From: Isurus oxyrinchus | Taxonomy: Eukaryota | NCBI GenBank assembly: GCA_026770705.1 | Contig: JANJGN010000016.1 | Span: forward strand, 87,792,001-87,856,000 | Length of the DNA: 64,000 nt | Direction: 5' to 3' | Shown: positions 9,001-64,000 of the stretch, in pieces | Numbering within the stretch: the first letter of the stretch is position 1 | How the letters are laid out: the number at the start of each line of letters is the position of its first letter | Program-made: the position numbers and the translations under genes | Notes under the pieces: generated by a model | Databases searched by the model: none | The model's input: the letters and a program-made list of their open reading frames with translations, nothing else | What the model was told of the DNA's origin: nothing

Positions 9001-12000
9001 ACTATTTAGCATCAGCTAATTTACACGTGATCTTTTCTACACGTGATCTCTGAATAGTATTTAGCATCAGCTTGTTTACATGTGATCTCTTCAACACGTG
9101 ATCTCTGAATAGTATTTAGCATCAGCTTGTTTTCACGTGATCTCTTCTACATGTGATCGCTGAATATTATTTAGCATCAGCTACTTTGCACGTGATCTCT
9201 TCCACACGTGATCTCAGAATAGAATTTAGCATCAGCTACTTTAAACGTGATCTCTTCCACATGTGTTCTATGAATAGTATTTAGCATCAGCTTGTTTTCA
9301 CGTGATCTCTTCTACATGTGATCTGTGAATAGTATTTAGCATCAGCTACTTTACACGTGATCTCTTCTACACGTGATCTCAGAATAGAATTTAGCATCAG
9401 CTACTTTACACGTGATCTCTTCCACATGTGTTCTCTGAATAGTATTTAGCATCAGCTTGTTTTCACGTGATCTCTTCTACATGTGATCTGTGAATAGTAT
9501 TTAGCACCAGCTACTTTACACGTGATCCCTTCTACACGTGATCACTGAATAGAATTTAGCATCAGCTACTTTACACGTGATCCCTTCTACACGTGATCAC
9601 TGAATATTATTTAGCATCAGTTACTTTACACATGATCTCTTTTACACGTGATCTCTGAATAGTATTTAGCATCAGTTACTTTACACATGATCTCTTCTAC
9701 ACGTGATCTCGGAATAGTATTTAGCATCAGCTACTTTACACGTGATCTCTTCTACACGTGATCTCTGAATAATACTTAGCATCAGCTAGTTTACACGTGA
9801 TCTCTTCTACATGTGATCTCTGAATAGTATTTAGCATCAGCTACTTTACACGTGATCTCTTCTACACGTGATCTCAGAATAGTATGTGGCATCAGGTAGC
9901 TTACACATGATCTCTTCCACACATGATCTCTGAACAGTATTTAGCACCAGCTTGTTTACAGGTGATCTGTTCTACATGTGATCTCTGAACAGTATTTAGC
10001 ATCAGCTACTTTACACATGATCCCTTTTACACGTGATCACTGAATAGAATTTAGCATCAGTTACTTAACACATGATCTCTTCTACACTTGATCTCTGAAT
10101 AGTATTTAGCATCAGCTACTTTACACATGATCTCTTCTACACATGATCTCTGAATAGTATTTAGCATTAGTTACTTTACACATGATTTCTTCCACACGTG
10201 ACCTCTGAATAGTATTTAGCATCAGCTACTTTACACGTGAACTCTTCTACAGGTCATCTTTGAATATTATTTAGCATCAACTACTTTACACGTGATCTCT
10301 TCTACATGTGATCTCAGAATAGTATTTAGCATCAGCTACTTTACACGTGATCTCTTCTACACATGATCTCAGAATAGTATTTAGCACCAGCTACTTTACA
10401 CGTGATCTCTTCTACACGTGATCTCTGAATAGTATTTAGCATCAGCTTATTTACACGCGATCTCTTCTACACATGATCTCTGAATATAATTTAGCATCAG
10501 CGACTTTACACGTGATCCTTTCTACACGTGATCTCAGAATAGTATGTAGCATCAGGTAGCTTACACATGATCTCTTCCACACATGATCTCTGAACAGTAT
10601 TTTGCATCAGCTTGTTTACAGGTGATCTGTTCTACACGTGATCTCTGAACAGTATTTAGCATCAGCTTGTTTACACATGATCTCTTCTACACGTGATCTC
10701 TGAACAGTATTTAGCATCAGCTACTTTACACATGATCTCTTCTACACGTGATCTCTGAATAGTATTTAGCATCAGCTTGTTTACACGTGATCTCTTCTAC
10801 ACGTGATATCGGAATAGTATTTAGCATCAGCAACTTTACTCGTGATCTCTTCAACACAATATCTCTGACTAGTATTTAACTTCAGCTATCTTACACATGA
10901 TGTCTTCTACACGTGATCACTTCTACACCTAATCTCTGAATAGCATTTAGCATCATATAGGTTACACATGATCTCTTCTATACCTGATCTCTGAATAGTA
11001 TTTAGCTTCAGCTATCTTACACATGATCTCTTCTACACGTGATCTCTGAATAGTATTTAGCTTCAGCTATCTTACACATGATCTCTTCTACACATGATCA
11101 CTTCTACACCTGATCTCTGAACAGTATTTTGCATCAGTTACTTAACACGTGATCTCTTCTACACGTGATCTCAGAATAGTATTTAGCACAGATAGTTTAC
11201 ACATGATCTCTTCTACACGTGTTCTCTAAGTAGTATTTAGCATCAGCTACTTTACACGTGATCTCTTCTACACATGATCTCTGAATAGTATTTAGCACAG
11301 ATAGATTACACGTGATCTTTTCTACACGTGTTCTCTAAGTAGTAATTAGCATCAGCTACTTTACACATTATCTCTTCTACACATGATCTCTGAATAGTAT
11401 TTAGCATCATCTAATTTATACGTGATCTCTTCTACATGTCATCTCTGAATATTATCTAGCATCAGCTACTTTACACGTGATCTCTTCTACACGTGATCTC
11501 TTCTATATGTGATCTCTGAATAGTATTTTGCTTCAGCTAGTTTACACGTGATCTCTTCTGCATGTTATCACTGAATAGTATTTAGCATCATATAGTTTAC
11601 ACATGATCTCTTCTACACCTGATTTTTGAATAGTATTTAGCTTCAGCCAATTTACTCGTGATCTCTTCCACACAAGATCTCTGAATAGTATTTAGCTTCA
11701 GCTATCTTACACATAATCTCTTCCACACATGATCTCTTCTGCACCTGATCTCTGAATAGTATTTTGCATCAGCTACTTTACTCGTGATCTCTTCTATATG
11801 AGATCTCTGAATAGTATTTTGCTTCAGCTAGTTTACACATGATCTCTTCTACACGTGATCTCTGAATAGTATTTAGCATGATATAGTTTACACATGATCT
11901 CTTCTACACGTGATCTCTGAATAGTATTTTGCTTCAGCTAGTTTACACATGATCTCTTCTACATGTGATCTCTTCTGCACCTGATCTCTGAATAGTATTT

Positions 12001-36753: not shown

Positions 36754-37689
36754 ATGGCAGGAGAGCTCAAAGCCGTGGTGTGCTCTTCGTGCTCCATGTG
36801 TGAAGCTGGGAACATTTCCAGTGCCCGGGACCAGCATTTGTGCAGGAAGTGTGTCCAGCTGCAGCTCCTGGAAGCTCAGATTTCAGAGCTGGAACGGAAG
36901 CTGGAGACACTGTGGAGCATCCGCAAGTCTGAGAGCATCGTGGATAGCACATTTAGAGAGGTGGTCACATGCAGCTGAAGTGACTTGAGGAAGGAAAGGA
37001 ATGGGTGACCACAAGGCAGTCCAAACGAAACAGGCAGGTAGTTCAGGAGTCCCCTGAGGTACTGCTCACAAATCGGTATTACATTTTGGAGTCTGATGAG
37101 GATGCTGGTTCCTCCAGAGAGTGCAGACAGAGCCAAGCTTCTGGCACCACAAGCAGCCTGTCTGTACCAGAGGGGAGGAAGAGCAATAGTAATAGAGGAT
37201 TATATAGTCAGGGGAACAGGTAGGCGCTACTGTGGCTGTCAACGTGACTCCAGGATGGTGTGTTGTCTCCTTGGTGCCAGGGTCCGGGATGTCACTGAAC
37301 AGCTGCAGGGCATCCTGAAGGGGGTGGGTGATAAGGCAGAGGTCATGGTACATGTTGGTACCAATGACATAGGTAGAAAGAGGGATGAGGTCTTGCATCA
37401 ATATTTCAGGGAGTTAGGCAGTAGACTAAAAAGCAAGACCTCTCGGGTTGTAATCTCTGGATTACTCCCAGTGCCACATGCTAGTGAGCACAGAAATAGG
37501 AGAATAGTGCAGATGAATACGTGGATTAAGAGTTGGTGCAGGAGGGAGGGTTTTAGATTCCTGGATCACTGGGACCGTTTCTGGGGAAGGTGGGACCTGT
37601 ACAAGTGGATCGGTCTACATCTGAACCAGAGCGGGACTAATATCCTTGCTGGCGGGTTTGCCAGTGCTGTTGGGAGGTGTTTAAAATAA
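36754..37689 (+). pseudogene. CR1 ORF1: zinc finger/coiled coil plus SGNH esterase domain, disrupted
   Basis: CSSC..CRKC zinc finger and leucine heptads (36754-36978); esterase blocks AIVIEDY (decayed GDS), VHVGTNDIG, GLHLN (37096-37689); stop and frameshifts in between. Confidence 0.85.
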
Positions 37690-37810
37690 TTAGCAGGGGG
37701 AGGGGACACAGAATGTTAACAGAATAGGGACACATCATAATACAATAAAACAATCAAGTCAGACAGAGTACAGCTGCATTAAGTTTCAAGGGAGTAAGGC
37801 AAGGCTGGAT

Positions 37811-40609
37811 GGCCTCTACTTTAATGCCAAGAGTATTACAGGTAAAACGGATGAGTTAAGGGTGAGGATTGACACGTGGAATTGTGATATATTGGCCATC
37901 ACTGAAACGTGGCTGAGGGAGGGGCAGGATTGGCAGCTCAACATTCTGGGATATAGAATCTTCAGGCGAGACGGGGAGGCGGTAAAAGAGGAGGAGGCAT
38001 TGCATTATTAGTTAGGGAGTCAGTTACTGCAGTAAGGAGAGATGATATCTTGGAGGGGGCATCGAATGAAGCTTTGTGGGTGGAGCTTAGGAATGAAAAA
38101 GGGGCAGCCACATTGTTAGGTGTTTATTATAGACCCACAGATAGTCAGCAGGAAATTGAGGAGCAAATATGAGCACAATTTGCGGAGGTGTGTAAAAACA
38201 ATAACAATAGGGTAATTATGTTAGGAGATTTCAACTTTCCCAACATTAATTGGGATAGACATAGTGTTAAGTGCTTGGATGGATTGGATATTTTGAAATG
38301 TTTACAGGAGGACTTTTTAGGTCAATATGTAGAGGGTCCAACAAGGGATGGCGCAGTGCTGGACTAATTTTGGGGAATGAAGCCGGAGAGGTGGCTGAGG
38401 TGGTGGTGGGGGAGCATTTTAGTGATATTGACCACAACATGGTACAGTTTAGGCTTGTTATGGACAAAGAAATAGGCAAGTTGCAAAAAAATGTTTTGGA
38501 TTGGGGGAGATTGGATTTTAGTAAAATAAGGCAGGATCTGGCCAAGGTAGACCGGGAACAGTTACTTGTGGGGAAATCTACAGAGGAGCAGTGGGGGGTA
38601 TTGAAAAAGGAAATGGGGAGTGTACAGGCTCAACATGTTCCCTCTAGGGTGATAGGAAGGAGTAACAAGCCCAGAGAACCATGGATGACCAGAGTTATTC
38701 AGGATACGATGAAAATGAAGAGAGAGGCTTTTAGCAGGTACAAGGGAAGCAAATCAGCGGAGGCATTAGTGGAGTACAGACAGTGCAGACTGGAGCTTAG
38801 AAAGCAATTAGGAGAGCAAAGAGGGGATATGAGAAAGCTCTGGCTGGTAAAAGTAGGGAAAATCCCAAGATATTCCAGATGTATATCAATGGGAAGAGGA
38901 TAACCAGGGAAAGAGTAGGGCCCATTAGGGACCAAGGGGGCAATCTATGGGCGGAGCCAGCGGACATCGCTAGAGTGTTGAATGAATACTTCTCATCCGT
39001 CTTCAACCAAGAGAATGAGAATGAAGGTATGGAACTCGGGGAGAGAGACTGCAAGGTTCTTAAATAAATTGATATATGGAGTGACAAGGTATTGGAGATG
39101 TTGGCAGGCTTAAAAGTGGACAAATCTCCAGGTCCGGACGATCTGTCTTCCAGACTGCTGAAGGAGGTAAGGGAGAAGATCTGAAGGGCTCTGACCCAAA
39201 TTTTTAATTCCTCTCTGGCCACGGGGGAGGTGCCAGAGGACTGGAGAAAAGCTAATGTGGTTCCGCTATATAAGAAGTGTTGTAGAGATAAGCCAGGGAA
39301 TTACAGGCCAGTGAGTCTCACATCAGTGGTAGGGAAATTATTGGAGAAAGTTCTGAAGGAGAGTATCTATCTCCACTTGGAGAGGCAAGGTTTGATCAGG
39401 GATAGTCAGCATGGCTTTGTCAGAGGGGGGGCATCCCTAACAAATTTGATTGAATGTTTTGAGGAGGTGACCAGGTGTGTAGATAAGGGTAGTGCAGTTG
39501 ATGTAGTTTATATGGATTTCAGCAAAGCCTTCGACAAGTTCCCACATGGGAAATTTATAAAGAAGGCAAATGGACATGGGATACAGGGTAATTTGATAAG
39601 ATGGATTCAAAATTGGTTTAGTTGTAGGAGACAGATGGTGATGACAGAAGGATGCTTTAGTGACTGGAAGCCAGTGTCCAGTGGTGTACCACAGGGATCT
39701 GTGCTCAGTCCCCTATTATTCGTCGTTTATATAAACAACATAGATGACTATGTGGGGGTAGGATTAGTAAGTTTGCGGATGACACAAAGATTGGCCGGGT
39801 GGTTAACAGTGAGGCTGAGAGTCTTGGGCTACAGGAAGATATAGACAGGATGGTCAAATGGGCAGATAAGTGGCAGATGGAACTTAACCCTGAAAAGTGT
39901 GAGGTGATACACTTTGGAAGGAGTAATTTGACAAGGAAGTATTCAATGAAAGGCATGAGACTTGGAAGTTCTGAGGAACAAAGTGACATTGGAGTGTGTG
40001 TCCATAGATCTCTGAAGGCGGAGGGGCATGTTAGTGGGGTGGTGAAAAAGACATATGGGACACTTGCCTTTATCAATCGAGGCATAGATTACAAAATTTG
40101 GGAGTCATGTTGGAGTGTATAGAACCTTGGTGAGGCCACAGCTGGAGTACTGTGTGCAGTTCTGGTCGCCACATTATAGGAAGGATGTGATTGCAGTGGA
40201 CGGGGTGCAGAGGAGATTCACCAGGATGTTGCCTGGGACGAAAAATTTAAGTTATGAAGAGAGGTTGGAAATGCTTGGGTTGTTTTCATTGGAGCAGAGA
40301 AGACTGAGGGGCCACCTGATCGAGGTGTACAAGATTATGAGGGGCATGGACAGGGTGGATAGGGAGCAGCTGTTCCCCTTAGTTGAAGGGTCAGTTATGA
40401 GGGGATATAAGTTCAAGGTGAGGGGCAGGAAGTTTAGGGGGGATGTGAGGGGAACATTTTTTACCCAGAGAGTGGTGACAGTCTGGAATGCATTGCCTGG
40501 GAGAGTGGTGCAGGCGGGTTGCCTCACATCATTTAAAAAGTACCTGGATGAGCACCAGGAACGTCATAACATTCAAGGCTATGGGCCAAGTGCTGGTAAA
40601 TTGGATTAG
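37811..40609 (+). pseudogene. CR1 ORF2: AP endonuclease plus reverse transcriptase, multiple stops and frameshifts
   Basis: GLYFNAKSI, AITETWL, YYRP, LGDFNFPNINW, DKSPGPD, NYRPVSLTS, SQHGF, DFSKAFD, GVPQGSVL, SKFADDTK (~39766-39789), VRPQLEYCVQFWSP, WNALP. Confidence 0.93.
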
Positions 40610-40776
40610 GTAGGAAGGTCAGGTGTTTCTCACGTGTCAGTGTAGACTTGATGGGCTGAAGGGTCTCTTCCCCACTGTGTGATTCTGTGATTCTGTGATT
40701 GTGTGAATAGTCTTGTTATAAAAGAACCGTTCGGATGAATGACAATAACATGATAGAATTTACATTATGTTTTAAA

Positions 40777-46010: not shown

Positions 46011-46639
46011 CTGCCTTGTCCCTCTGTAGATGTTCTCTGGGTGTGAGTGTGTAATATAAGGGGGTGTTTGTCAGTATATTTTCGATGCTCTATGGTTTCT
46101 GAGCATGGTGGGAGGGGATCAGGGCTCTGTTCTTTGACGTGACGCAGTGATATCTGTCCCAGTGTCTCAGACTGTGATGCTGTTGTTTTCTGTGACTGAC
46201 GCTATGATATTGATTGTAATCTCACTCAGTGTGACACGAGGTTACATGTCTTGATCAGTGGTGAGGGAGGAGCAGACTGAACAAGGAGCTGCAATCATCA
46301 GTCACTGCCGAAATCCTTCACACAGCCCGCACACTCCGCAAACTTCTTCACTAAATATTCTTTCAGCTCCTTAATGAGAGGCCTGGAGCTGAAAAGGGAA
46401 AAAGAGAAAGACATCTTTTCGAGAGGCTCATGGACACAATGTACACTGTACATTACCCACTAATGACACTCTGTCTACATTTAACTCATTGTTTAAGCTC
46501 CAGCCCACCTCCTGTTCCCATCCATATGTTTCAGTCAAGGAGCCTGATAAGCCTCTAGCACAGGAGGAGGCCATTCAGCCCCTTGTGTCTGTGCTAGCTG
46601 TGCACTCGGATCATTCAGAACTAACCTCTCAGTTTAATG

Positions 46640-50094: not shown

Positions 50095-51090
50095 TTTGAA
50101 TAAGTCACAAGCAAGGTGGATAAAGGGGAAACTGTAGATGTGGTGTACACGGAATTTTTAAATGCATTTGATAAGGTGACACATCAAACATTGCTGCATA
50201 AGATGAGAGCTCATGGGCCAGGATTTTGCTCTCGTCGGGTGAACTCGGTGGGGGTGAGAGTGGGCGTTCAGGAAGCCGACCACTGCCTGTGATTGGAGCC
50301 TGAGCGGGATTTCACAAAGGCGAGCCAATTAAAGCCCTCCCAGCGTGAACCATGTGCTACAGCGCTCAGCGCTGCCTGTGTCGGGAGGAGGGAGGGAGGG
50401 GGGTAAGCGGAGAGCTTTGTGCATGAGTGCGAGTGTGCACAGGAAAAGCTCCCTGAGGCACGGAGCGGCCTGTAAGGTAGCTCAATGTGTCGATCTCATC
50501 AAGATGGGTAGGAATGTAATTTGTTAAGAGGAGGTAGGGAGTCTGCAAAGGGATATGGACAGGTTAAGTGAGAGGACAACAATTTGTCAGATGGAGCGTA
50601 ATGTGTGAAAATGTGAACTTGGCAGGAAGAATACAAAAGCAGGATATTATTTAAATGGAGAGAGATCCTGCAGAACTCTGCGATCCAGAGGGATCTGGGT
50701 GTCCTGGTGCATGAATCACAAAAAGTTGGTTTGCAGATGCAGCAAGTGATTCGGAAGGCACATGGAGTGTTGGAGTTTGTTGCAAGGGGAATGGAATATA
50801 AACATAAGGAAGTTTTACTGCAGCTGTACAGGGACATTGGTGAGACCACATCTGGAGCAGTGTGTACAGTTTTGGTCTCCTTATTTGAAAAAGGATATAA
50901 TTGCGTTTGAAGCAGTTGAGAGAAGGTTCATTCGGCTCACTCCTGGGATGAGGGGTTTATTTCATGAAGGCAGGTTGGACAGGTTGGGACTCCAGTCAGT
51001 GCAATGGAGAAGAATGAGAGGGGATCTTATTAAAACATATAAAATCCTGAAGGGATTTGATAGATTGGATTCCAGGAGGTTGACCCCACT
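50095..51090 (+). mobile_element. CR1 RT fragment with a GC-rich insertion (~50215-50500)
   Basis: VDKG.TVDVVY..F.NAFDKV; LQRDMDRLSE; LVRPHLEQCVQFWSPYLKKDI..RGDLIKTYKILKG (ORF 50762-51115). Confidence 0.85.
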
Positions 51091-51096
51091 TCTCAG

Positions 51097-51360
51097 GAGA
51101 GAGAAAAATGAGTAGGTGGAGGGACAAAGAAAGAGAGACAGAAAGTTAGGGAGAAAGAGAGAGAAAGAGTGAGAGGGAGAGAGAGGGAAAGGAAGAGAAG
51201 GGGAGGGAGAGAGAGAGCAAACAAGGAGAGTGAGACAAAAAGAACAAGACAAGGAGACAGGCAGAACGAGAGGGAGAGAGAGACAGGGAGTGACGGACAG
51301 AGAGAGGGAGAGATAGAGAGAGAGTGATGGACAGATACTGAGAGAGGGAGGGAGAGAGTT
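51097..51360. repeat. GA-rich low-complexity tract directly upstream of the V promoter
   Basis: Almost pure purine (GA)n-like sequence. Confidence 0.9.
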
Positions 51361-51365
51361 GAAGA

Positions 51366-51460
51366 GGAAGTGAAAGGTGCTGACGTGGTTCTCTCTGGGT
51401 GATACCATTTACATACTGAGGAACAGCCAGTGAGACTCTGACAGGCTGCAGCTGTATAAA
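51366..51460 (+). promoter_or_regulatory. Ig light-chain V promoter: EICE, CRE-like site, variant octamer, E-box, TATA
   Basis: GGAAGTGAAA 51366-51375; TGACGT 51381-51386; ATTTACAT 51407-51414 (1 mismatch to ATTTGCAT, light-chain orientation); CAGCTG 51449-51454; TATAAA 51455-51460, about 60 bp before the ATG. Confidence 0.8.
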
Positions 51461-51520
51461 GCTGAGCCCAGTGAAGGGAGAGTTTATCAGTGACCAGGCA
51501 CAGGGACAGGAGCAGACACC

Positions 51521-51569
51521 ATGATTTCAGCCATCCAGCTGATCTGGCCTCTGGCATTCTGCATCGCAG
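51521..51569 (+). CDS. IGKV: Ig kappa-type light chain leader exon (MISAIQLIWPLAFCIA-G)
   Basis: ACACC-ATG context, hydrophobic 16-codon peptide, phase-1 donor G|GTAC at 51570; splices in frame to the V exon. Confidence 0.93.
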
Positions 51570-51755
51570 GTACAAATCTCTCTCCTTCCACCGTGAATAT
51601 TGTCCTGCTCTCCATTTCCATCCAATTCGACTGACTTGTGATTGAAGGGAAAATGCTGAAAGCAGAGGAACGGTCACTGTCTCTAACAATATCTCATTTT
51701 ACAGGCTCTTTGTGTGACAGTTCTTACTTCACACTGTTTCTCTATTACCCCTCAG

Positions 51756-52050
51756 GTATCAGTGGGGACATCACCATGAAACAGCCTCCCCTGGTGTCAG
51801 TGAGCCTGGGCCAGACCGCCACCATCACCTGTACGGCCAGTCAGTCTGTTAGCAGCTATGTTGCTTGGTACCAGCAGCGAGAAGGACAGAAACCGACTCT
51901 CCTGATCTATGATGCAACAACTCGATTCACAGGAACATCCGAGCGATTCACCGGCAGTGGATCTGGCACTCAATTCACCCTGACAATCAGCAATGTACAG
52001 AATGAGGATGTCGCTGATTATTACTGTCAGCAAACTGACAGCTCCCCCTA
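51756..52050 (+). CDS. IGKV: Germline V segment, Ig kappa-type (shark type III/NS4-like) light chain
   Basis: Polypyrimidine tract and CTCAG acceptor; (G)[97 protein letters not shown]; conserved Cys, Trp and YYC; no stops. Confidence 0.98.
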
Positions 52051-52078
52051 CACAGTGATACAGAGCCTGACAAAAACC
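52051..52078 (+). other. 12-bp-spacer recombination signal sequence (V)
   Basis: Perfect CACAGTG (52051-52057), 12-bp spacer, perfect ACAAAAACC (52070-52078). V12/J23 is the kappa configuration. Confidence 0.98.
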
Positions 52079-52267
52079 TCAATACACACAGCACCACCTC
52101 CTGTACTGACACATCCCACAGTTATATAGAATATATAATAATGGTCACTTTACCTCTTACCTTACATGTCCACATATGAAGAGTGGCTGAAAGATTTATC
52201 ATATAAAATTGGGATTCTCAATTCTCCCAACAAAAAAAAGGCATTGAGAGGAAGAGAGAGGGAAAGA

Positions 52268-52543
52268 GAGAGTGTTAAAGGTGAGTGTGAGTGAGAGACA
52301 GAGAGAGGGTGAGAGTGAGTTAAAGGTGAGTGTGAGTGAGAGACAGAGAGAGGGTGAGAGTGAGTGAAAGGTGAGTGTGAGTGAGAGACAGAGAGAGGGT
52401 GAGAGTGAGTTAAAGGTGAGTGTGAGTGAGAGACAGAGAGAGGGTGAGAGTGAGTTAAAGGTGAGTGTGAGTGAGAGACAGAGAGAGGGTGAGAGTGAGT
52501 TAAAGGTGAGTGTGAGTGAGAGACAGAGAGAGGGTGAGAGTGA
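52268..52543. repeat. 45-bp minisatellite, about 6 copies, in the V-J interval
   Basis: Unit GAGTGAGTTAAAGGTGAGTGTGAGTGAGAGACAGAGAGAGGGTGA; copies nearly identical. Confidence 0.95.
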
Positions 52544-52564
52544 CTGAATGAAGCAGAGAGCTGA

Positions 52565-52603
52565 GGTTTTTGTACAGCCCCTGCACTGGAATCTCTCAGT
52601 GTG
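52565..52603 (-). other. 23-bp-spacer recombination signal sequence (J)
   Basis: GGTTTTTGT (52565-52573), 23-bp spacer, CAGTGTG (52597-52603; reads CACACTG on the minus strand, 1 mismatch with the critical CAC intact). Confidence 0.96.
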
Positions 52604-52638
52604 GGTTACGTTCGGTAAAGGAACCAAACTCAGACTGA
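52604..52638 (+). CDS. IGKJ: J segment (VTFGKGTKLRL-S)
   Basis: FGxG motif directly after the 23-RSS; perfect phase-1 donor A|GTAAGT at 52639. Confidence 0.97.
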
Positions 52639-53284
52639 GTAAGTAAACCCCAATCCTCTCTTATTAACCCTTTCAATACTAAAACTTTCTCAAACACTAA
52701 TGCTGAATAGTTGAAGGTGTTAGTGAGGAGCTGCAGTGAATGAAATGGTTCAGTGAACAACACTGTGTATAACAGGGTGCCCAACTGTATTTCTTTCATT
52801 ACATTCCCCCCTTTAAGCAGCAAGATAGAAATAACCAACTTTTACCCACCGTCTAGAGGAGATCTGGACGTTTGCAGACTGTGCTGACATTGCTGCACCA
52901 TGGACTGAAATCACTCACTAGACTCCTGTCAGTCTCAGTGTGACAGACACGGGCAGAGTTTGATATGAGCTCCGGCTCCCTCTCACAGTCTCTGATATAA
53001 CTGATCACAGCACCAGCACAGTGAGACACCGAGGTCCCACCTCCCCCAGCTTGAACTCTGCTCTCTCCACTCCCTGGTTATCTCTTGGCAAATTTCTGAT
53101 GACAAACAGGTAGAGCAGGGCCCACAATCCAGTGGCTTCAGTGTTCCAGGATTTCGGGGAGACTCTCCGTTTCCCCCGAATGTTTAAGTGTCACCCTCTA
53201 GACTCCAGACCTCCTGGAATCTGCTCTCCATCTCTCTCCTGAAGACACTGTCTCTGACTGGGGAACAGCTCCACCCTCCCCAAG

Positions 53285-53615
53285 TGGGCTCATTCCTCCA
53301 AGTGACTTGAGCACATAATCCAGGCTGAGACTCCAGTGCGGTATTGAGGGAGGGCAGCACTGTCAGAGGAGCTGTCTTTCAGATGAGACAAACTGAGGTC
53401 TGCCCTCTCAGTGGGATGTAAAAGTTCCCATGGCGCTGTGAGAAGAATAGCAGGGGAGTTCTTGCGCATTTTCTGTTTAGTATTTATCTCTCAAAGAACA
53501 TCACAAAAAAACCTGACTTTCTGGCCATCATCACTCTACTGACTGGGATCTTACTGTGTACAGTTAGCTGTAAAAATCCTGAGATGATGACTGGTGCTAT
53601 AGAAATGCAAGTATT
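53285..53615 (+). mobile_element. Decayed Deu-domain SINE (SacSINE1/AmnSINE1-like) in the J-C intron
   Basis: GACTTGAGCACATAATCCAGGCTGA..GTCTTTCAGATGAGAC..TAAAAGTTCCCATGGC..GCAGGGGAGTTCT and tail GCTATAGAAATGCAAG resemble DeuSINE as I recall it; not database-verified. Confidence 0.7.
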
Positions 53616-54029
53616 GAGACTGAAGGTTCCTAATCCTGACCCTCGCACTCACACTTTCCATGGTTCATGGTGTCATTCGGAGTCGTGACCTTGTCTGACC
53701 CCCAGACCCTGAGACTAATTGTAGCCTCACCCTTGACCTCTCTCCAGTGCTGGGTGGCAAGGTTTGAAATGAAATCTAGAATCTTCTATACTGAGACCCA
53801 ATCTGAATCCTTTCTGAAGTGGGTTGATCCAAATGTGCTCCAACATTCTGGGATAAAGTTCTCTCAATGTGTGTGTGATCTGAGGATTGTTAATGTGAAC
53901 CTGTTTCCTCGGACAGGCTGATTAATAGTCAGAGCTTCCTGACAGCTTAACAGTGTCTTAGAGGGACACTGAGTCTTTAAACACTCTTACTATTAACCAT
54001 TTCAGTGCTGAATTTGTGGTAACCCTCTT

Positions 54030-55392
54030 TACAAATGTCTAAGTAACAGCCCAATATGATTTAACCAGCTTAACATCAAACCTTTACCTCCTGCCACTCA
54101 ACCAATTTGAAACACAACTTGCTCCTTTCCCTGGCATCCAATGAGTTTTAACTTTCTGACCAGTCTGTCCATGTCAGAAGTCTTGCTAAAATCCACATCG
54201 ATTACATCAAACTCGCTATCGTTGTCAACCCTTCTTGTTACCTCCTCATGATGATGAGAATTTCTCTTAGAAAGATTTCTGACATTTGCCCACCACTGAG
54301 GTTAGAGTGACTGGTCTGTAATTTCTCAGTCTATCCCTTCCTCCCTTTTTAAACAACATTATCAGTCCTCCAGCCCTCTGTAACCACACCCCTTTCCAGA
54401 GAGGATTGGGAAATAATGGTCAGAGCCTCTGCTATTTCTTCCCTTGTTTCCTTTCCTGCCTGGGATACAATTCATCCGGGTCTGGGGATTTATCCACTTT
54501 CCAAGATGCTGAACACATTAATATCTCCTCTCTCACCATGTTTATCCCATCCAATATTTCACAATTCTGCTCCTCCTCAACTAGAATGTCCGCGTTGTCC
54601 CTCTCTTGTGTGAAAACAGATGTAAATTATTCATTCAGAACCATCTATGTGCTTCCAACCCCACCCCCTCCCCCCAATACAGAGAGTGAGTGAGACGGAG
54701 GGAGGGAGAGAGAGGGAGAGTGAGAGGGAGAGAGAGAGGGAGAGAGAGAGAAGGAAAGAGAGAGAGAGTCAGAGAGTAAGGAGGAGAGAGAAGGAGGGAA
54801 AGAGGGGGAGAGGGAGGGAGAGAGAGGGAGAGGGTGACAGAGATACAGAGAGAGAGAGTGGGTGAGAAAGAGATACAGGGGGAGACAGAAAGAGTGACAG
54901 AGAGTGAGTGACAGAGATCTATTTTTTGGTCTCCAATTGGCCTTACTCAATCTTTAGTTATCCTCTTGCAATGTCCCACGCTATTTCTTTGTGTGAAGAT
55001 ATTTGTTCTGAGCCCATTTTATATCTTTCCTGAATGTTTCCCATTGCTCTGACACTGATTTATCTTCAGGTTTCTGTTTCCTGTCCATTTTGGCAAATTG
55101 GCCTTTCCCTAATGTACAAATTTTACACTTTACCTTTTTCCATAACTGCTCTAAATCTAACTGAATTATGATCACTATTATCCAAATACTCTCCCACTGA
55201 TACACCTTCCACCTGGCCAGATTCATTCCCTGAAATTGTCTAAAACTGCCCCTTCTCTTGCTGAGTTTGTTATGTTCTGCCGAAAAAAAATCACCTGGAT
55301 GGATTATAAGAATTTTGCATCATCTAAACATTTACACAGATTTCATCCCAGTTAATATTCGGGAAGTTGAAATTCATTATAATGACAGTGAT
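54030..55392 (-). mobile_element. Decayed CR1 ORF2 fragments in the J-C intron, split by a GA-rich tract (~54680-54915)
   Basis: Minus strand: IIMNFNFPNINW (decayed GDFN, ~55345-55390), QWETF, DKSPDPD, DVIDVDFSKTSD-like motifs. Confidence 0.75.
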
Positions 55393-55417
55393 TAAACTTC
55401 CTTCTCTTCCATTTCAG

Positions 55418-55746
55418 GCAGAGAGAAGTCACCACCCACACTGACCCTGCTGCCCCCCTCCCCAGAGGAGGTCAAGACCAAGGGCACTGCCACCCTGGTG
55501 TGCCTTGCCAATCACTTCTATCCCGATGAGGTGAAGGTGGAGTGGAAGAAGGACGGTGCAGCCATTTCGGACGGGGTTCAGACCAGCAACTACCTGCGAG
55601 CTTCAGACAGCACCTACAGCGTCAGCAGCCTGCTGACCCTCTCTGGCTCCGGCTGGGAGTCCAACGCCAGCTTCTCCTGTGTCGTCACCCACGAGAGTCT
55701 TTCCTCTCCCCTCAGCAAGAGCATCAGGAGATCAGAATGTGCGTAG
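55418..55746 (+). CDS. IGKC: Constant-region exon, Ig kappa-type light chain
   Basis: TTTCAG acceptor, phase compatible with J; (S)REKSPPTLTLLPPSPEEVKTKGTATLVCLANHFYPDEVKVEWKKDG..STYSVSSLLTLSGSGWESNASFSCVVTHESLSSPLSKSIRRSECA*; both C1-domain Cys, the Trp and a penultimate interchain Cys are present. Confidence 0.98.
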
Positions 55747-55909
55747 AGTGTTAGAGACAGTCCACAGAGGAGATACAACTTTAAATAGAACAGGGGTGAG
55801 CTGGGAGGGCAAAGGTCATTGTCAGCACCAAATTACAACTCTCTTCCTTCTCAGGACTGGCTCTGAGACACACTTCTGAGGGTCAGGGGTTAAGGCACGT
55901 TATTGGTGC

Positions 55910-56256
55910 AGTGTACAGTGAGGTTCATTCTGTATCTAACACTGTGCTGTACCTGTCCTGGGAGTTTTTGATGGGGACAGTGTAGAGGGAGCTTTACTCT
56001 GTATCTAACCCCGTGCTGTACCTGTCCTGGGAGTGTTTGTTGGGGACAGTGTAGAGGGAGCTTTATTCTGTATCTAACCCCGTGCTGTACCTGCCCTGGG
56101 AGTGTTTGATGGGGACAGTGTAGAGGGAGCTTTACTCTGTATCTAACCCCGTGCTGTACCTGCCCTGGGAGTGTTTGATGGGGACAGTGTAGAGGGACCT
56201 TTACTCTGTATCTAGCCCCCTGCAGCACCTGTCCTGGGAGTGTTTGATGGGTCAGT
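55910..56256. repeat. 69-bp tandem repeat, about 5 copies, in the predicted 3' UTR
   Basis: Unit CTGTATCTAACCCCGTGCTGTACCTGTCCTGGGAGTGTTTGATGGGGACAGTGTAGAGGGAGCTTTACT; explains the 23-aa periodic ORF 55890-56228. Confidence 0.93.
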
Positions 56257-56454
56257 TTAATCTCGTGATGCTAAGTTAAACCTCTCTAAGATGCTGAAGA
56301 CTGTCAGCTGTACAAAAATAATGTGACCCTCCGAAGTGTCTGCTTCAGTAAACCAGACCCCTTCCTGCTCACCCTGCAGTTACAATTTAAGGTTTAGTCA
56401 CTGTTTAAAGGGGCAGGATTCTCATGTTCTGGAGAAAATCTCCACAAGCGTTTT

Positions 56455-56600
56455 AATAAACCTCCATTCTCCCTGTGAATTTCTCCAGCTCCCTCTGGCT
56501 GGGCTGTTTATTCAAGTCTTTTTTCTGTAAATGTCAATGTGTAAAAGGTAATAAACATTAAGAATATTCAGTCTCTGTCTGGTGAGTGCTTTGGAAATGT
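56455..56600 (+). terminator. Polyadenylation signals for the light-chain transcript
   Basis: AATAAA at 56455-56460 and 56550-56555; the second is followed by CA and a GT-rich stretch (GTCTCTGTCTGGTGAGTGCTTT). Confidence 0.7.
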
Positions 56601-56874
56601 CCCACCTCCCCATCAGCTGATTGGCTGCCTTTCAGCAAGTGCTTGTCCTGATTGGCTGGCTGGCCTGTCAATCAATGACACATCAACAGAAGATTTGATT
56701 CAAAGCCAGCTATCAATCATTTTAAAATGATCAGTTTTATCCTGAATCTCTTGAATTTACAAGATTAAAAACAGAAAAGAAACTGGAAGTTGCTGGGATT
56801 AAATCATCACAACCACAATTAAGTCAGGAGTGCAAACTGTAGCCAGTCCAGGAGATGTGCTCTCAGGCCCTGTG

Positions 56875-57200
56875 CTACTTTTACACTCGATCCTGTTGCA
56901 ATAACCCCCAACATTCCATCTACCTTCCGAATCACTTGCTGCATCTGCAAACCGACTTTTTGTGATTCATGCACCAGGACACCCAGATCCCTCTGGATCG
57001 CAGAGTTCTGCAGCCTCGTTCCATTCAAATAATTTACTGCTTTTCTATTCTTCCTACCAAGCGGACAATACACATTCTCCCACATTATTCCCCACCTGCC
57101 AAATATTTCCCCACTCGCTTAACCGATCTAAATCCCTTTATTGGCCCATTCTGTCCTCTTGACAACTTACTTTCCAAGCAATATTTCTGTCATCAACAAG
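56875..57200 (-). mobile_element. CR1 RT fragment, inverted relative to the 50.5-51.1 kb copy
   Basis: GRKNRKAVNYLNG.RLQNSAIQRDLGVLVHESQKVGLQMQQVIRK (ORF 56819-57085). Confidence 0.88.
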
Positions 57201-57675: not shown

Positions 57676-60600
57676 AGGGGGTGGAGGGGTGGGGGTGGGT
57701 GATGCCGTGGGTGGAGGTGGAGGGTGATGCCGGGGTTGGGGGCGTGGGTGATGCCGGGGGTGGGGGGGGGGTGGGTGATGTTGGAGTTTGGGGGTGTGGG
57801 TGATGCTGCCGGTGGGAGGGTGAATGATGCCGGGGGTAGCGTGATGGGTGATGCTGGGGTTGAGGTGCTGGGTGATGCCGGGGGTGGGGGAGAGGGTGAT
57901 GCCGGGGGTGGGGGTGGGAGTGGGGGACAGGGTGTGGGTGATGCCGGGGGTGGGGCACAGGGTGATGCCGGGGGTGGGGGTGGGAGTGGAGGACGGGGTG
58001 TGGGTGATGCCGGGGGTGGGGGGAGAGGGTGATGCCGGGGGTGGGGGTGGGAGTGGGGGACGGGGTGTGGGTGATGCCGGGGGTGCGGGAGTGAGTGATG
58101 CTGGGGGTGTGGGAGGTGGGTGATGCTGGGGGTGCGGGGTGGTTGATGTCGGCGATAGGGGGGGTGGGTGGTTGATGTTGGGGGTGGCGTGATGGGTGAT
58201 GCTGAGGTAGAGGGGGTGAGTGATGCCAGGGATGGGGGAGTGTTTAATGCCGGAGCCGGAGGGGTGGAGGCCGGGTGGGTGGTAGTGGGTGATGCCGGGG
58301 TGATGCCGGGGGTGGGGTTTGAGTGATGCCGGGTGTGACGTGATGGGTGATGCCGGGGGTGAGGGGGGTGTGTGATGCCGGGGTAGTGGGCGTGGGTGAT
58401 GCCGGGGGTGAGGGAGAGGGTAATGCCAGATGTGGGTGTGTGCATGATGCCGGTGGTGGGGGTTGGGTGATGCCGGGGTGGGTGGGTGGGTGATGCCGGG
58501 GATGAGGCGGTGGGTAATGCCGGGTGTAGCATAATGGGTGATGCCAGGGGTGGGGGCATGGTTGACGCCAGGTGATGCCGGGGGTGGGGGGGTGGGTGAT
58601 GCCGGGGTGAAGGGCGTGGATGATGCCTGGGGTAGGGATGGTGGGTGATGCAGGGGGTGGAGAAATGTGTGATGTTCTGGGTGGTGGGGTGGGTGATGCC
58701 GAGCGTGAGGGTGTGTGTGATGCTGAGGGTGGGGGTTGGTTGATGCCTGGAATGGGGGCCTGGGTGATGCAGGGGTGGGAGAGTGAGAAATGCCAGAGCT
58801 GGGGGTTGGGTGGTGCCAGGGCTGGAGGGTGAGGGACCCATGGGTGGGGGATTGGGTGATGCTGGGTTGAGGGAGAGGGTAATGCCGGATGGTGGGGGGC
58901 TGGGAGAAGCCGGGGATGGGGGAGTGTGTGATGCCGGGCGTGACAGGGTGGTGATGCCGGGGTAGGGGGTGAGGGTGATGCCGGAGTGTGGGTGGGGGTG
59001 GTGGGTGATGCCGGGGGTGGTGGGGTGGATGATGCCGGGAGTGGTGGGTGAGGGTAATGCCCGTGTTGGATGTGTGGGTGTTGCTGGGGGTGAGGGGGGC
59101 AGGTGATACCGGGGGTGGGGGAATAGGGGATGCCGGGGGTTGGTGGGCTTGGGTGATGCCGGGCGTGGGGGCGCGGATGATGCCGGGGGTGGGGGTGGGG
59201 TTTGTGGGTGATATCAGGGGTGTTAGGGTGGGTGATGCCAGTGTTGGGGGTGTGGATGCAGCTGAGGGATGGGCTGGTGGGTGATGCCGGGGGTAGAGGG
59301 GGGAGGAGAATGCCGGGGATGGGGGTTGTGGGTTGTCGGGGGTGGGAAGGATGGTCGATGCCATGGGTGGGGGGTGGGTGATGCCTGGGGTGGCGTGGTA
59401 GTCTTTGCCGGCTATGGGAGGGGTGGGTGATGCCATGGTTGAGGTTTGGGTGATGCCAGGTGTGAAGGGGTGGTTGATGCCTGAGGTGGGGGCGTGGGTG
59501 AGGCCATGGGTGGGGGAGTTGGGTGATGCCGGTGGTGGGCGTGTTGATGATGCAGAGGTTGGGGGTGTGGCTGATGCCATGGTTGGGGGGGTGGGTGATG
59601 CTTGGGATGGGGGGGTGGGGGAATAGGTGATGTCGAGTGTGGAGGGAGTGGGTGGTGCCGGGGGTGAGGGGGTGAGTGATGCCGGGGGTGAGGGTGCGGA
59701 TGTTGCTGTGGGTGGGGTGCCAGGTGATGCCCAAAGTGGGGTGGGTAAAGCCTGCGGTGGGTGATGCCAGGGTTGGGGCCTGCGTGGTGCTGGGTTTGGG
59801 GGGCGTTGTTGATTCCGGGGATGGGGTGGGTGGATGGTGGTGCGGGTGGGGGGGGTGTGGATGATGCCGGGGATGGGAGGGGTGGGTGATGCCATGAATG
59901 GGGGGGGTGGGGGATGCCGTGAGTGGAGGGGTGGGTGATGCTAAGATTGGGGGTTGGTTGATGCCGGGGGTGGGGGGCTGGGTGATGCCGGTGGTGGGGG
60001 TGTGGGTGATGCAGGGGATGGGGTGGTTGGTGATGCCATGGGTGGGGCAGTGGGTAATGCCGGGGGTGGAGGATGTTGGTGATGCCAGGGTTGGGGGAAT
60101 AGGTGATGTTGGGGGTGTTGGGATGGGTGATGCCAGGTGTGAGGGGGTGTGTGATGCCGGGGTTGTGGGCGTGAGTGACGCCTGGGGTCGGGTTGGGCGA
60201 TGCTGAGGGTGGGGGTTGGTTGATGCCTAGGATGGGGGCCTAGGTGATGCCGGGGGGTGGGGGAATGTGAAATGCCAGAGGTGGGGGTGTGGGTGATGCC
60301 GGGGCTGGTGGTGTGGGTGATGCCGGGAGCGTGTGATGCCAGTGTTGGCGGTGTGGGTGTTGCTGGGGGTGGGGGTGGTGGGTGATGCCGGGGTTGGTGG
60401 GGTCGATGATGCCGGGAGTGGTGGGTGAGGGTAATGCCCGTGCTGGGGGTGTGGGTGTTGCTGGGGGTGAGGGGGCATGTGATACCGGGGGTGGGGGAAT
60501 AGGGGGTGCTGGGGGGGTGGGGGGATTGGATGATGCTGGGGGTGGGGGCTGAGGGACCCATGGGTGGGGGATTGGGTGATGCTCAGTTGAGGGAGTGGGT

Positions 60601-63600
60601 AATGCCGGAGTGTGGGGGGCTGGGTGATGCCGGGGTACGGGGTGTGGGTGATGCTGGGAGTGGGGGGTGTGGGTAATGCCCGTGTTGGGCGTTGGGTGTT
60701 GCTGGAGATGAGGGGGCAGGTGATACCATGGGTGGGAGTGCTGGGTGATGCCGAGAGTGCTGGAGTGGGTGATGCCGGGGGTTGGGGTGGGTGATGCCGG
60801 GGGTGACGTGATGGGTGATGCTGGGGTTGAGGAGGTTGGTGATGCCGGGGTGAAGGGCATGGGTGATGCCTGGGGTAGGGTGGTGGGTGATGCCGGGTGT
60901 GGGATGGTGGGTGATGCCAGGGGTGGTGAATAGGTGATGCCGAGGGTGGGGGGGGGTGGGTGATGCCGGACGTGAGGGGGTGTGTGATGCCGGGGTTGTG
61001 AGCGTGGTTGATGCCTGGGATGGGGGCCTGGGTGATGCCGGGTGTGGGGTGTGGGTGATGCCGTGGGTGGGGGGCCAGTTGATGCCGGGGTGGGGGGGTG
61101 GGTAATACCAGAGGTGGGAGTGTGGGTGATGCCGGTGGTGGAGGTTGGGTGATGCCGTGGGTGGGGGTTGGCTGATGCTGGGAGTGGGGTGGTGGGTGAT
61201 GCCGCGGGTGGGGGTTGGCTGATGCTGGGGGTGGAGGTGAGGGACACATGGGTGGGGGGTTGGTTGATGCTGGGGTTGAGGGACTCGGTAATGATGGAGG
61301 TGGGGGTGTGGATGATGCCGGGGGTGGGGGAGTGGGTGGTGCCGGGAGTGAAGGGGTCGTGATACCGGGGTAGGGAGTGTGGGTGTTGCCATGGGTGGGG
61401 GAGTGGTTGCTGCTGGAGTTACGGTGGTGGTGATGCCGGGTGTAGCATGATGGGTGATGCCAGGGGTGGTTGTGGTGGGTGATGCCGGGGGTGGGGGCAC
61501 GGATGTTGCCGTGGGTGGGGTGCCAGGTGGTGTCGAGAGTGGGTAATGCCTGGGGTGGGTGTTGCCAGGGTTGGGGACTGTGTGGTGCTGGGTGTGGGTG
61601 GGGGGTGGTTGATTCCGGAGACGGGTGTATGGATGGTGGTGCGGGTGGGGGGGTGGTGTGGATGATGCCGGGTGTATGGAGGTGGGTGCTGCCGGGGATG
61701 GTGTGGTAAGTGATGCCATGGGTGGGGTGTGGGCGTTGCAGGGGATAGGGGCGAGTGCGTGATGCCGTGGGTGGGGGGGGTGTGGGTGATGCCGGGGGTG
61801 GAGGAGGTTGTTGATGCCGGGGGAGGGGCAATAGGTGATGTCGGGGGTGTTGTGGAGGGTGATGCCAGGCGTCAGGGGGTGTGTGATGCCAGGATTGTGG
61901 GCGTGAGTGATGCCTGGGGTAGGGGTTGGGCGATGCCGAGGGTGGGGGTTGGTTGATGCCTAGGATGGGGGCCTAGGTGATGCCGGGTGTGGGGGAGTGT
62001 GAAATGCCAGAGGTGGGGGTGTGGGTGATGCCGGGGCTGGGGGCCTGTATTATGCCAGGAGTGCGGAAGTGGGTAATACCAGAGCTGGGGGTGTGGGTGA
62101 TGCCGGTGGTGGTGGTTGGGTGACGCCACGCGTGGGGTTTGGCTGATGCCGGGGGTGGGGGTGAGGGACCCATGGGTGAGGGGTTGGGTGAAACTGGGGG
62201 TGAGGGAGTGGGTAATGCCGGAGGTGAGGGGCTGGGAGATACCGGGGATGGGGGAGTGGGTGATGCTGGGCATGTGGGGATGGTGATGCCGGGGTAGGGG
62301 TTGTGGGTGATGCCAGGAGTTGGATTGGGGTTTGTGGGTGATGCCGGGGGTGGTGGTGTGGGTGATGCCAGCAGTGGGTGGTGCCATTGTTGGCAGTTTG
62401 GGTGTTGCTGGGAGTGGGGTTGGTGGGTGATGGCGGGTTAGTGGGATGGGTGATGCCCGGAGTGGGGTGTATGGGTGATACCACTGTTGGCAGCGTAGGT
62501 GTTGCTGGGGGTGAGGTGGGACGTGATACCGGGAGTGGGGGTGCTGGGTGATGCCGGGGTTGGGCAAGTGGGTGATGCTGGGGGTGGGGGAATAGGTGAA
62601 GTTGGGTGTGGGGGGGGTTGGCTGGTGCCGGTGGTGAGGGGGTGGGTGATGCCGGGAGTTAGAGGGAGTGTGATGTCTGGGGTAGGGGGAGGGTAATGCT
62701 GGGGCTGGGTGATGGCAGGGTTGGTGGAGTGGTTGTTGTTGGCAGTAAGGGGGTGGGTGATGCTGGAGGTGGGGGTGGGGGTGGTAGGTGATGCTGGGGG
62801 TGGGTGTTGCTGGCGGTGAGGGTGTGGGTGATGCTAGGGGTGATGCCGGGGGTGGGTGTTGGCACGGTTGGAGGGGTGGGTGATTCTGGGGGTGGGGGTG
62901 GGGGGGGTGGATGATGCCGGGTGTGGGAGACGTGTGATGCTGGGGAGGTGGTTTGTTGCGTGAAGCCGCGGTTGGGGGTAGTTCGTGTTGCCGGGGGTGA
63001 TGGGTGTGTGTGATGCCGGGTGTGGGTGATGACGGGGCTTGGGGGGGTTGGTGATGCCTGGGGTGGTGGGGTGGCTGATGCCCGGAGTGGGGGCAGTGGG
63101 TGATGCCAGTGTTGGGGTTGGGATGGTGAGTAATGTCATTGGTGGGGGCATGGGTGATGCAGGGGGTGAGGGGGAGTGTGATGCCGGGGGCAGGGGTGTG
63201 GGTGATGGCGGTGGTCGGGGTATGGGAGATGGAGGGGATGGGGCGGTGGGTGATGCCGGGGTTTTGTGGGGTGGCTGATGCCGGGAGTGAGGTTGTGGGT
63301 GATGCCGGAGTTAGGGGTTGGGTGATGCCATGGGTTGGGGGGTGGGTGTTGCAGGGGGTGGGGGGGGTGGGTGGGTGATGCCATGGGTGGGGGCGTGGGT
63401 GATGCTGGGGATGGGGGGGTGGGTGATGCCGGTGGTAGCATGATGGTTGATGCCGGAGTTGAGGGGGTGGGTGATGCCGGGGGGTGGAGTGCGTTGGTGA
63501 TGCCGGTAGTGGGGGAGTGGGTGTTGCCGGGGATGGGGTGTGTGTGATGCCAGGTGTGACGTGATGGGTGTTGCCGGGGTTGAGGGGGTGGGTGATGCCG

Positions 63601-64000
63601 GGGGTGGAGGTGTTGAGTGATGCCGGGGGTGGGGTATAGTTGATATCAGGGGTTGGTGGGGGTTGTTGCCGGGGCTGAGGGGGTGGGTTATGCCGGGGTG
63701 ATGGGCGTGGCTGATGCCTGGGGTAGGGGAGCGGGTGATGCCGGTGTTGGGATAGTGGGTGATGCTGGGGATGGGGGAATAGATGATGCCAGGGGTGGGG
63801 GCGTGGGTGATGCAGGGGGTGAGGGGATGTGTGATGCCGGGGTTGTGGGCATGGGTGACGCCTGGGGTAGGGGGTGAATGATGCCGGGTTTCGGGGTTGG
63901 TTGGTGCCTGGGATGGGGGCCTGGGTGATGCCGGGTGTGGGGATGTGAGTAATGCCAGAGGTGGGATTGTGGGTGATGCCGGTGGTGGGGGTTGGGTGAT
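57676..64000. repeat. G-rich degenerate minisatellite array (core GGGTGATGCCGGGG(G)TGGG; unit about 17-22 bp), runs off the window end
   Basis: Hundreds of GTGATGCC/GTGATGCT cores separated by G-runs; extreme G over C skew on the + strand. Confidence 0.95.

Follow-up and report, generated by a model that had tools for sequence, protein, structure and literature searches.

Non-allelic gene conversion between neighbouring Alu copies, or between neighbouring long terminal repeats (LTRs), has been reviewed, with citation of Aleshin and Zhi (2010) (PMC6598467). In such cases a short, near-identical tract is shared by independently inserted copies less than 10 kb apart, and the aged sequence of one copy is found in the other. 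The same pattern is seen in a window of 64,000 nucleotides from Isurus oxyrinchus (assembly GCA_026770705.1, contig JANJGN010000016.1, forward-strand positions 87,792,001 to 87,856,000), the whole stretch of DNA analysed. Two fragments of the retroelement CR1, here called copy A and copy B, lie on either side of a predicted immunoglobulin (Ig) light-chain cluster of the kappa type and share a 91-bp tract that differs at a single base. Unlike the Alu and LTR cases, the elements are fragments of the second CR1 open reading frame (ORF2) in an Ig locus of the fish type, the background identity is 73–76% where conversion is usual above about 80% (PMC3924818), and the direction is not fixed by an outgroup locus. 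The locus is a well-supported new instance of a known process, ectopic transfer between neighbouring inverted CR1 fossils. It offers an example of in-register transfer between retroelement fossils that have diverged at roughly one site in four, at the low end of experimental and human data, in a lineage where such events are little described.

Three other systems resemble the pair of copies. Human inversions mediated by transposable elements (PMC9675761) likewise pair related elements that face opposite ways at a distance of a few kb, with in-register homology at the presumed junction; those inversions were observed against a reference, whereas none is observed here, and their LINE-1 pairs had a median similarity of 97.1%. 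Template switching between non-identical inverted repeats (PMC8604942) produces both homogenisation of the arms and inversion of the spacer. Imperfect arms have been homogenised here too, and an insertion at the tract edge fits, but the published repeats are short and in yeast, and the spacer here is 6.2 kb. The flip/flop inversion of yeast chromosome XIV, with its recurrent homogenisation (PMC9731477), provides a model for reading the cluster as an invertible cassette, since homogenised inverted repeats surround intact genes. The yeast arms are members of a gene family, and the segment was seen in either orientation; the arms here are 91 bp of a dead long interspersed element (LINE), and one orientation is known.

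The enclosed cluster itself resembles the kappa (NS4, type III) clusters of cartilaginous fish (PMC4279169, PMC2193156, PMC5985310) in having a single variable (V), joining (J) and constant (C) segment, split rather than joined in the germline, with 12/23 recombination signals and a second complementarity-determining region (CDR2) of three residues. It departs from them in one non-canonical base of the J heptamer, in nothing else unusual, and in its place on a 26-kb island between two satellite arrays. The shared tract was not found in the literature on shark Ig clusters with repeats, conversion or inversion, as covered by the titles and abstract openings of the papers listed, mainly open-access ones.

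A near-identical tract in two decayed CR1 fragments

Positions 50668..50758 of copy A (plus strand) equal the reverse complement of positions 56923..57013 (copy B, minus strand) at 90 of 91 bases. The sole mismatch is a T at 50727 in copy A against a C, which sits in a CpG, in the reverse complement of copy B; both the limits of the tract and this mismatch are exactly as the sequence-only reading gave them. The tract lies within an inverted homology that runs from 50488 to about 50886 in copy A and from 57198 to about 56826 in copy B and stays in register across both tract edges. In the 5' flank (50488-50667 against 57198-57014) 130 of 178 ungapped columns are identical (73%, with 9 gap columns), and in the 3' flank 78 of 102 (76%, with 26 gap columns). 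The flanks had been put at roughly 80% by eye, which rightly made them more diverged than the tract and overstated their identity. The corrected flank divergence is 0.33, and the divergence of the tract is about 3% of that of the flanks (95% range 0.1–18%).

The right edge is sharp, with 11 differences within the first 41 columns. At the left edge there is a gradient, with 8 differences in the nearest 48 columns and 40 in the 130 farther ones (p 0.086). Just left of the tract, at 50619-50659, 36 of 41 columns match copy B (88%), which is above the rest of the 5' flank (p 0.09, near against far); this stretch is possibly an older conversion and is not significant. A 2-bp insertion in copy A (50666..50667, plus strand) abuts the left edge. 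It is absent from copy B and from the three CR1 sequences compared, a long CR1 element and a fragment (G2) of the window and the CR1 contig L001 described below, and it may be a junction scar, its placement depending on the alignment. Small insertions are a mark of end-joining-type junctions in human rearrangements (PMC9675761). The insertion weakly suggests that copy A was the recipient, a tract edge being a difference by definition.

An island of this kind is far beyond chance. At 27% divergence the binomial probability of at most one difference in 91 is 1.3e-11, or 2.9e-9 over 230 starts, and the longest run in 200,000 column permutations was 84 (mean 27.8), so that none reached 91. As a control, 14 CR1-like fragments of the window were chosen by eye, giving 91 pairs, of which 20 aligned at a score of at least 70. 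Apart from A–B, 17 pairs spanned 91 columns or more, and their best window of that length matched at 71 of 91; exact runs outside the A–B pair went up to 16 bp, compared with 59 bp between copies A and B. Self-comparison for repeats covered 31680-57690, and the tract itself was scanned against all 64 kb; there was no third copy in the window, the next best ungapped match being 43 of 91. A plasmid search with the tract gave no match, and a scan of prokaryote genomes gave one locus (L001), which was taken as an outgroup only. Among the 13 and 124 matches of two protein searches, in sets poor in vertebrate DNA, no paralogous copy of the tract exceeded 76% identity.

By alignment, copies A and B are identified as ORF2 fragments from just downstream of the reverse transcriptase (RT) core of CR1. 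Copy A (50488..51085, plus strand) holds the end of RT and the C-terminal region, with stops and frameshifts, and lacks the 3' end; its protein relatives reach 76% identity. Copy B (56826..57198, minus strand) is likewise decayed, with homology that is clear to about 56880 and degraded and gapped below that. A Pfam scan of three frames of the two copies gave no domain match. The window also holds a long CR1, at about 37000-40706, which is near full-length and decayed, with an ORF1 encoding a GDSL esterase (Lipase_GDSL_2) and an RVT_1 domain. Such an esterase in ORF1 is typical of CR1. The element ends in an 8-bp terminal repeat at 40678-40706 that matches the CR1 octamer ATTCTRTG, described in PMC2612034. 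Copies A and B both end before the 3' end of the element, so that this tail cannot be scored in them. Copy A is 59% identical to the long CR1 over 600 columns, and copy B 55%. In the 5' flank, A and B differ about equally often at the three codon positions (17/15/16), which argues that both decayed neutrally as dead copies rather than as active lineages under selection; differences between copy A and the long CR1 within the tract are distributed 12/13/23.

Some further features of the copies were seen. Between the two 5' flanks there are 29 transversions and 19 transitions, more transversions than plain neutral decay would lead one to expect. Just upstream of copy A lies another piece of CR1 RT (50095-50216), separated from it by about 270 bp of unrelated GC-rich DNA, which we take to resemble a transposon fragment; copy A may belong to a longer element that has been interrupted.

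The nucleotide outgroups were the long CR1 and L001, a 709-bp CR1 contig (L001:1-709) with an open frame across the region, which sits in an Aeromonas assembly; both belong to other subfamilies than A and B. Against L001 the tract has 62% identity and the adjoining flanks 60–62% and 66–68%; against the long CR1 the tract has 47%. Both copies were scored where the two outgroups agree. At 49 such sites in the tract, copies A and B depart at 16 (33%), of which 15 are shared, none is private to one copy and one is different in both. At 133 such sites in the flanks there are 19 shared departures, 23 private ones and 6 that are different in both, and the excess of shared over private changes in the tract is significant (Fisher p 1.1e-4). 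The rate of departure in the tract (33%) is close to that in the flanks (26–32%), which rules out a younger donor copy. Because some of the shared departures are traits of the subfamily, the argument for transfer rests on the absence of private changes in the tract.

Residues encoded by the tract point the same way. An Ile at 50683, shared by both copies, occurs in 2 of 33 broad, motif-filtered relatives and in 0 of 18 of the closest set (1 of 19 in the copy B tally), and a shared Met at 50737 in 2 of 33 and 0 of 18. As far as these outgroups show, the tract appears to be aged sequence that is now present twice, and not a conserved part of the element. The sequence-only reading had taken the island for a transfer between independently decayed CR1 fragments, to be judged against CR1 relatives, and had set against it the case of a stretch equally alike family-wide. 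The departures from the outgroups, the rare residues and the neutral decay of the flanks support the transfer; the comparison gave 15 shared and 0 private changes in the tract against 19 and 23 in the flanks, with outgroups of other subfamilies, and in the outgroups at hand the tract is no better conserved than the flanks.

Several properties of the tract were considered and set aside. It shows no special secondary structure (z = -1.39; 20 of 200 shuffles fold as well), and there were no Rfam matches to structured RNA in 31600-58000. No inference was drawn from base composition: guanine plus cytosine (GC) makes up 51–52% of the tract, 40–43% of three flanks and 49% of the fourth, and the equivalent part of the long CR1 is also a little richer (48% against 45–46%). 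The epaulette shark mutation rate, 7e-10 per base per generation (PMC10587355), would place the flank divergence at about 240 million generations, which is implausible, and only a relative age is therefore given. Within the tract, at 50683-50696, the derived ATC codon makes perfect an inverted repeat of 5 bp around a loop of 4 bases, a change reminiscent of quasi-palindrome correction; the repeat is visible by eye and in the predicted fold of the tract, whose z-score as a whole is not significant.

Probable copying between the fragments, and alternatives

Almost certainly one copy templated the other long after insertion, a judgement that takes together the explanation favoured here and three of its alternatives, namely crossover, repeated conversion and copying in trans. 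The best explanation, and a probable one, is a single non-crossover event of ectopic copying between two neighbouring inverted CR1 fossils. As far as the outgroups tell, copies A and B would stem from CR1 sources that were close relatives, and neutral decay drew them apart to a divergence of about a quarter. One copy may then have suffered a break or stalled fork and been repaired on the other, 6.2 kb away and paired in register, with about 91 bases copied by synthesis-dependent annealing or a short template switch. Such an event would leave both copies with the same aged sequence, as is seen, and a later C-to-T change at the CpG would account for the single mismatch. The kappa cluster between them would be a bystander, its orientation most likely kept. 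Alu–Alu conversion is raised within 10 kb (PMC6598467), and estimates of conversion tracts are mostly 50 to several hundred bp (PMC3924818); the distance between A and B (6.2 kb) and the 91 bp of the tract fall within these ranges.

Several points weigh against this account. Conversion occurs mainly above 80% identity and rarely below it (PMC3924818), and the background here, at 73–76%, is the one mildly surprising feature. The 88% identity of the 41 columns left of the tract (p 0.09) could mean more than one event, and the donor may have been the counterpart copy in a paralogous cluster. The outgroups are not of the same subfamily at the nucleotide level, and some of the shared departures are subfamily traits, as the 19 in the flanks also indicate. 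Finally, non-crossover and crossover outcomes are indistinguishable from the window, and one of the two phase tests described below fits swapped flanks better (p 0.39 against 0.09).

Inversion of the 6,164-bp cassette of leader (L), V, J and C by a crossover or a double template switch, with the tract as a conversion scar at both breakpoints, is an unlikely alternative. The geometry allows it: copies A and B are oppositely oriented and flank the whole kappa cluster, with a spacer of 6,164 bp, and these inverted, in-register repeats enclose an entire transcription unit. Short tracts between diverged copies, on the other hand, mostly resolve without crossover. Human inversions mediated by transposable elements were in 15 of 15 cases between oppositely oriented elements (median 2,454 bp), but the pairs involved are more alike, with medians of 97.1% for LINE-1 and 81.7% for Alu (PMC9675761), than the 73–76% seen here.

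A crossover swaps the inner flanks; the phase test compared the decay of the flanks, to see if the copy with the more decayed 5' side is also the one with the more decayed 3' side. With the outgroups of the window, copy A has 19 derived changes in its 5' flank and 6 in its 3' flank, and copy B has 15 and 14; swapped flanks fit somewhat better (p 0.39) than unswapped ones (p 0.09). With L001 the counts are 14 and 5 for copy A and 18 and 17 for copy B, and swapped flanks are disfavoured (p 0.024, against 0.15 unswapped). The two results disagree in direction, and both depend on the distal part of copy B, where the alignment is poor; the 41 well-aligned columns are uninformative (3:4; p 1.0 and 0.68). 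Conversion with or without crossover leaves the same island, so the island does not show an inversion. The bracketing of the cluster needs no special cause, since CR1 is dense here, copy B is the only fragment of the control list downstream of C, and it takes part in 2 of the 5 pairs at 69% identity or more. The sequence-only reading had also seen in the inverted pair a possible means for such clusters to change orientation or spread; spread does not follow, because an inversion flips the cassette in place and copies nothing.

Two other mechanisms were rejected. Staggered-break inversion leaves inverted duplications, and it is ruled out here because both edges continue in CR1 register in both copies. 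RAG-like joining has been proposed in shark germ cells (PMC2193156), but a signal scan of the window that tolerated a single mismatch in the heptamer and another in the nonamer picked up just the two real signals of the cluster and none at the tract.

Repeated conversion, or concerted evolution, would have kept identity in a shrinking core while the flanks escaped, and the pair may then still recombine; we regard this as quite improbable. The left-edge gradient (8 differences in 48 columns against 40 in 130) and the persistence of a 59-bp exact run are in its favour, and repeated conversion is described as holding divergence at equilibrium (PMC6598467). The gradient is, however, not significant (p 0.086) and was spotted after the fact, and the right edge is sharp, with 11 differences in its first 41 columns. 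An extension of this idea makes the kappa cluster an invertible cassette, in which dead CR1 arms kept identical by repeated conversion let the orientation toggle in the germline and the pair of arms is inherited by paralogous clusters. There is little probability in this proposal; if it were true, paralogous clusters would differ in orientation for that reason.

Copying in trans, from the equivalent of A or B in a paralogous kappa cluster, or by a third copy that overwrote both, so that the local copies never paired, is very unlikely. Shark kappa clusters are many and close, with about 50 NS4 genes whose V segments are up to 99% identical (PMC2193156), and a paralogue could supply the same template if the same flanks were present there. 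Against this, neither a second cluster nor a third copy of the tract lies in the window, it would be unparsimonious for two separate overwrites to share both ends, and the matches of the two protein searches with the CR1 sequence, in sets poor in vertebrate DNA, are all at 76% identity or below.

Extremely unlikely is an artefact of assembly or polishing in which mis-mapped reads homogenised both sites. The tract is shorter than a short read, but it holds rare derived states and not the family majority, one mismatch persists, and the assembly keeps apart the two units of a 4,798-bp tandem duplicate in a satellite, with 3 differences between them, suggesting accurate long reads. There is hardly any chance that the 91 bases are a conserved or slowly changing stretch matching between any two copies of the family: the motif DLGVLVH, which they encode, ranks with the most conserved residues of the relatives, but nucleotide identity to the outgroups (62% for L001, 47% for the long CR1) shows no rise within the tract, dead copies decay regardless of protein constraint, and other CR1 pairs reach at most 71 of 91.

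If the event was non-crossover only, no effect on antibody function is expected, because the tract lies outside every coding and signal element found. If the cassette was flipped, V–J joining and the transcript would be intact, and the change would matter only through regulatory elements outside it. The tract can serve as a marker, in that its presence or absence in paralogous kappa clusters would order their duplications relative to the event and reveal any flip.

The kappa cluster and its surroundings

From its frames and signals, the cluster between the copies is predicted to be an intact kappa-type light-chain L-V-J-C unit on the plus strand. It begins with promoter-like motifs found by pattern match (51407..51460), an octamer variant ATTTACAT at 51407 and TATAAA at 51455. 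The leader exon (51521..51569) has the open frame MISAIQLIWPLAFCIAG and a GT donor at 51570. The V exon (51756..52050) is open in translation, with a Pfam V-set match (E 3.6e-18) and antibody light chains among the top PDB matches. Its recombination signal (52051..52078) has a canonical heptamer and nonamer and a 12-bp spacer. The J recombination signal (52565..52603, minus strand) has a 23-bp spacer and a perfect nonamer; its heptamer, CACACTG at 52597-52603, is one base off the canonical form. The J segment VTFGKGTKLRL (52604..52638), with a GT donor at 52639, matches the J part of two database proteins, P0137 and P0138. The C exon (55418..55746) is open for 108 codons and a stop, has a Pfam C1-set match (E 3.3e-25) and is 96% identical to P0137, whose J–C junction agrees with the predicted splice of J to C. 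Two AATAAA polyadenylation-like signals, again found by pattern match, lie at 56455 and 56550 (56455..56555). The sequence-only reading had placed a promoter, leader, V, J, C and polyadenylation signals between the copies; promoter-like motifs, leader, V, the pair of recombination signals, J, C and both AATAAA signals all lie there.

Kappa chains are distinguished by 12/23 spacing, a CDR2 of 3 residues and a CDR1 of 6–12 (PMC5985310). The 12-bp and 23-bp spacers of the V and J signals are of the kappa type, and CDR2 (DAT, 3 residues) and CDR1 (QSVSSY, 6 residues), both read by eye, agree with these features. In layout the cluster is like those of cartilaginous fish (PMC4279169), having one V, one J and one C; its frames are open and splice sites are present. 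No second Ig cluster or Ig remnant was found in the 64-kb window. The J–C proteins P0137 and P0138, the two nearest C-region matches at 96% and 87% identity to the C exon, are deposited under Salmonella and Aeromonas names; together with L001 they are probably vertebrate contamination of bacterial records. The assignment of the chain to sharks comes from its cluster layout and general resemblance.

The cluster is the only one on a 26-kb island of LINE debris and minisatellites (31680-57690) between two satellite arrays. A 55-bp satellite array occupies 1-31678 and contains the 4,798-bp tandem duplicate (2303-7100 and 7101-11898, 3 mismatches), a recent higher-order duplication. On the other side, at 57691-64000, is a G-rich 24-bp repeat of about 65% GC, with a GC skew of about 0.7. 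These satellite flanks could matter more for duplication or isolation of the cluster than the CR1 pair does. On the minus strand of the island, at 46260-46400, a splice-acceptor-like site seen by eye leads into a short open frame that could be a stray terminal exon.

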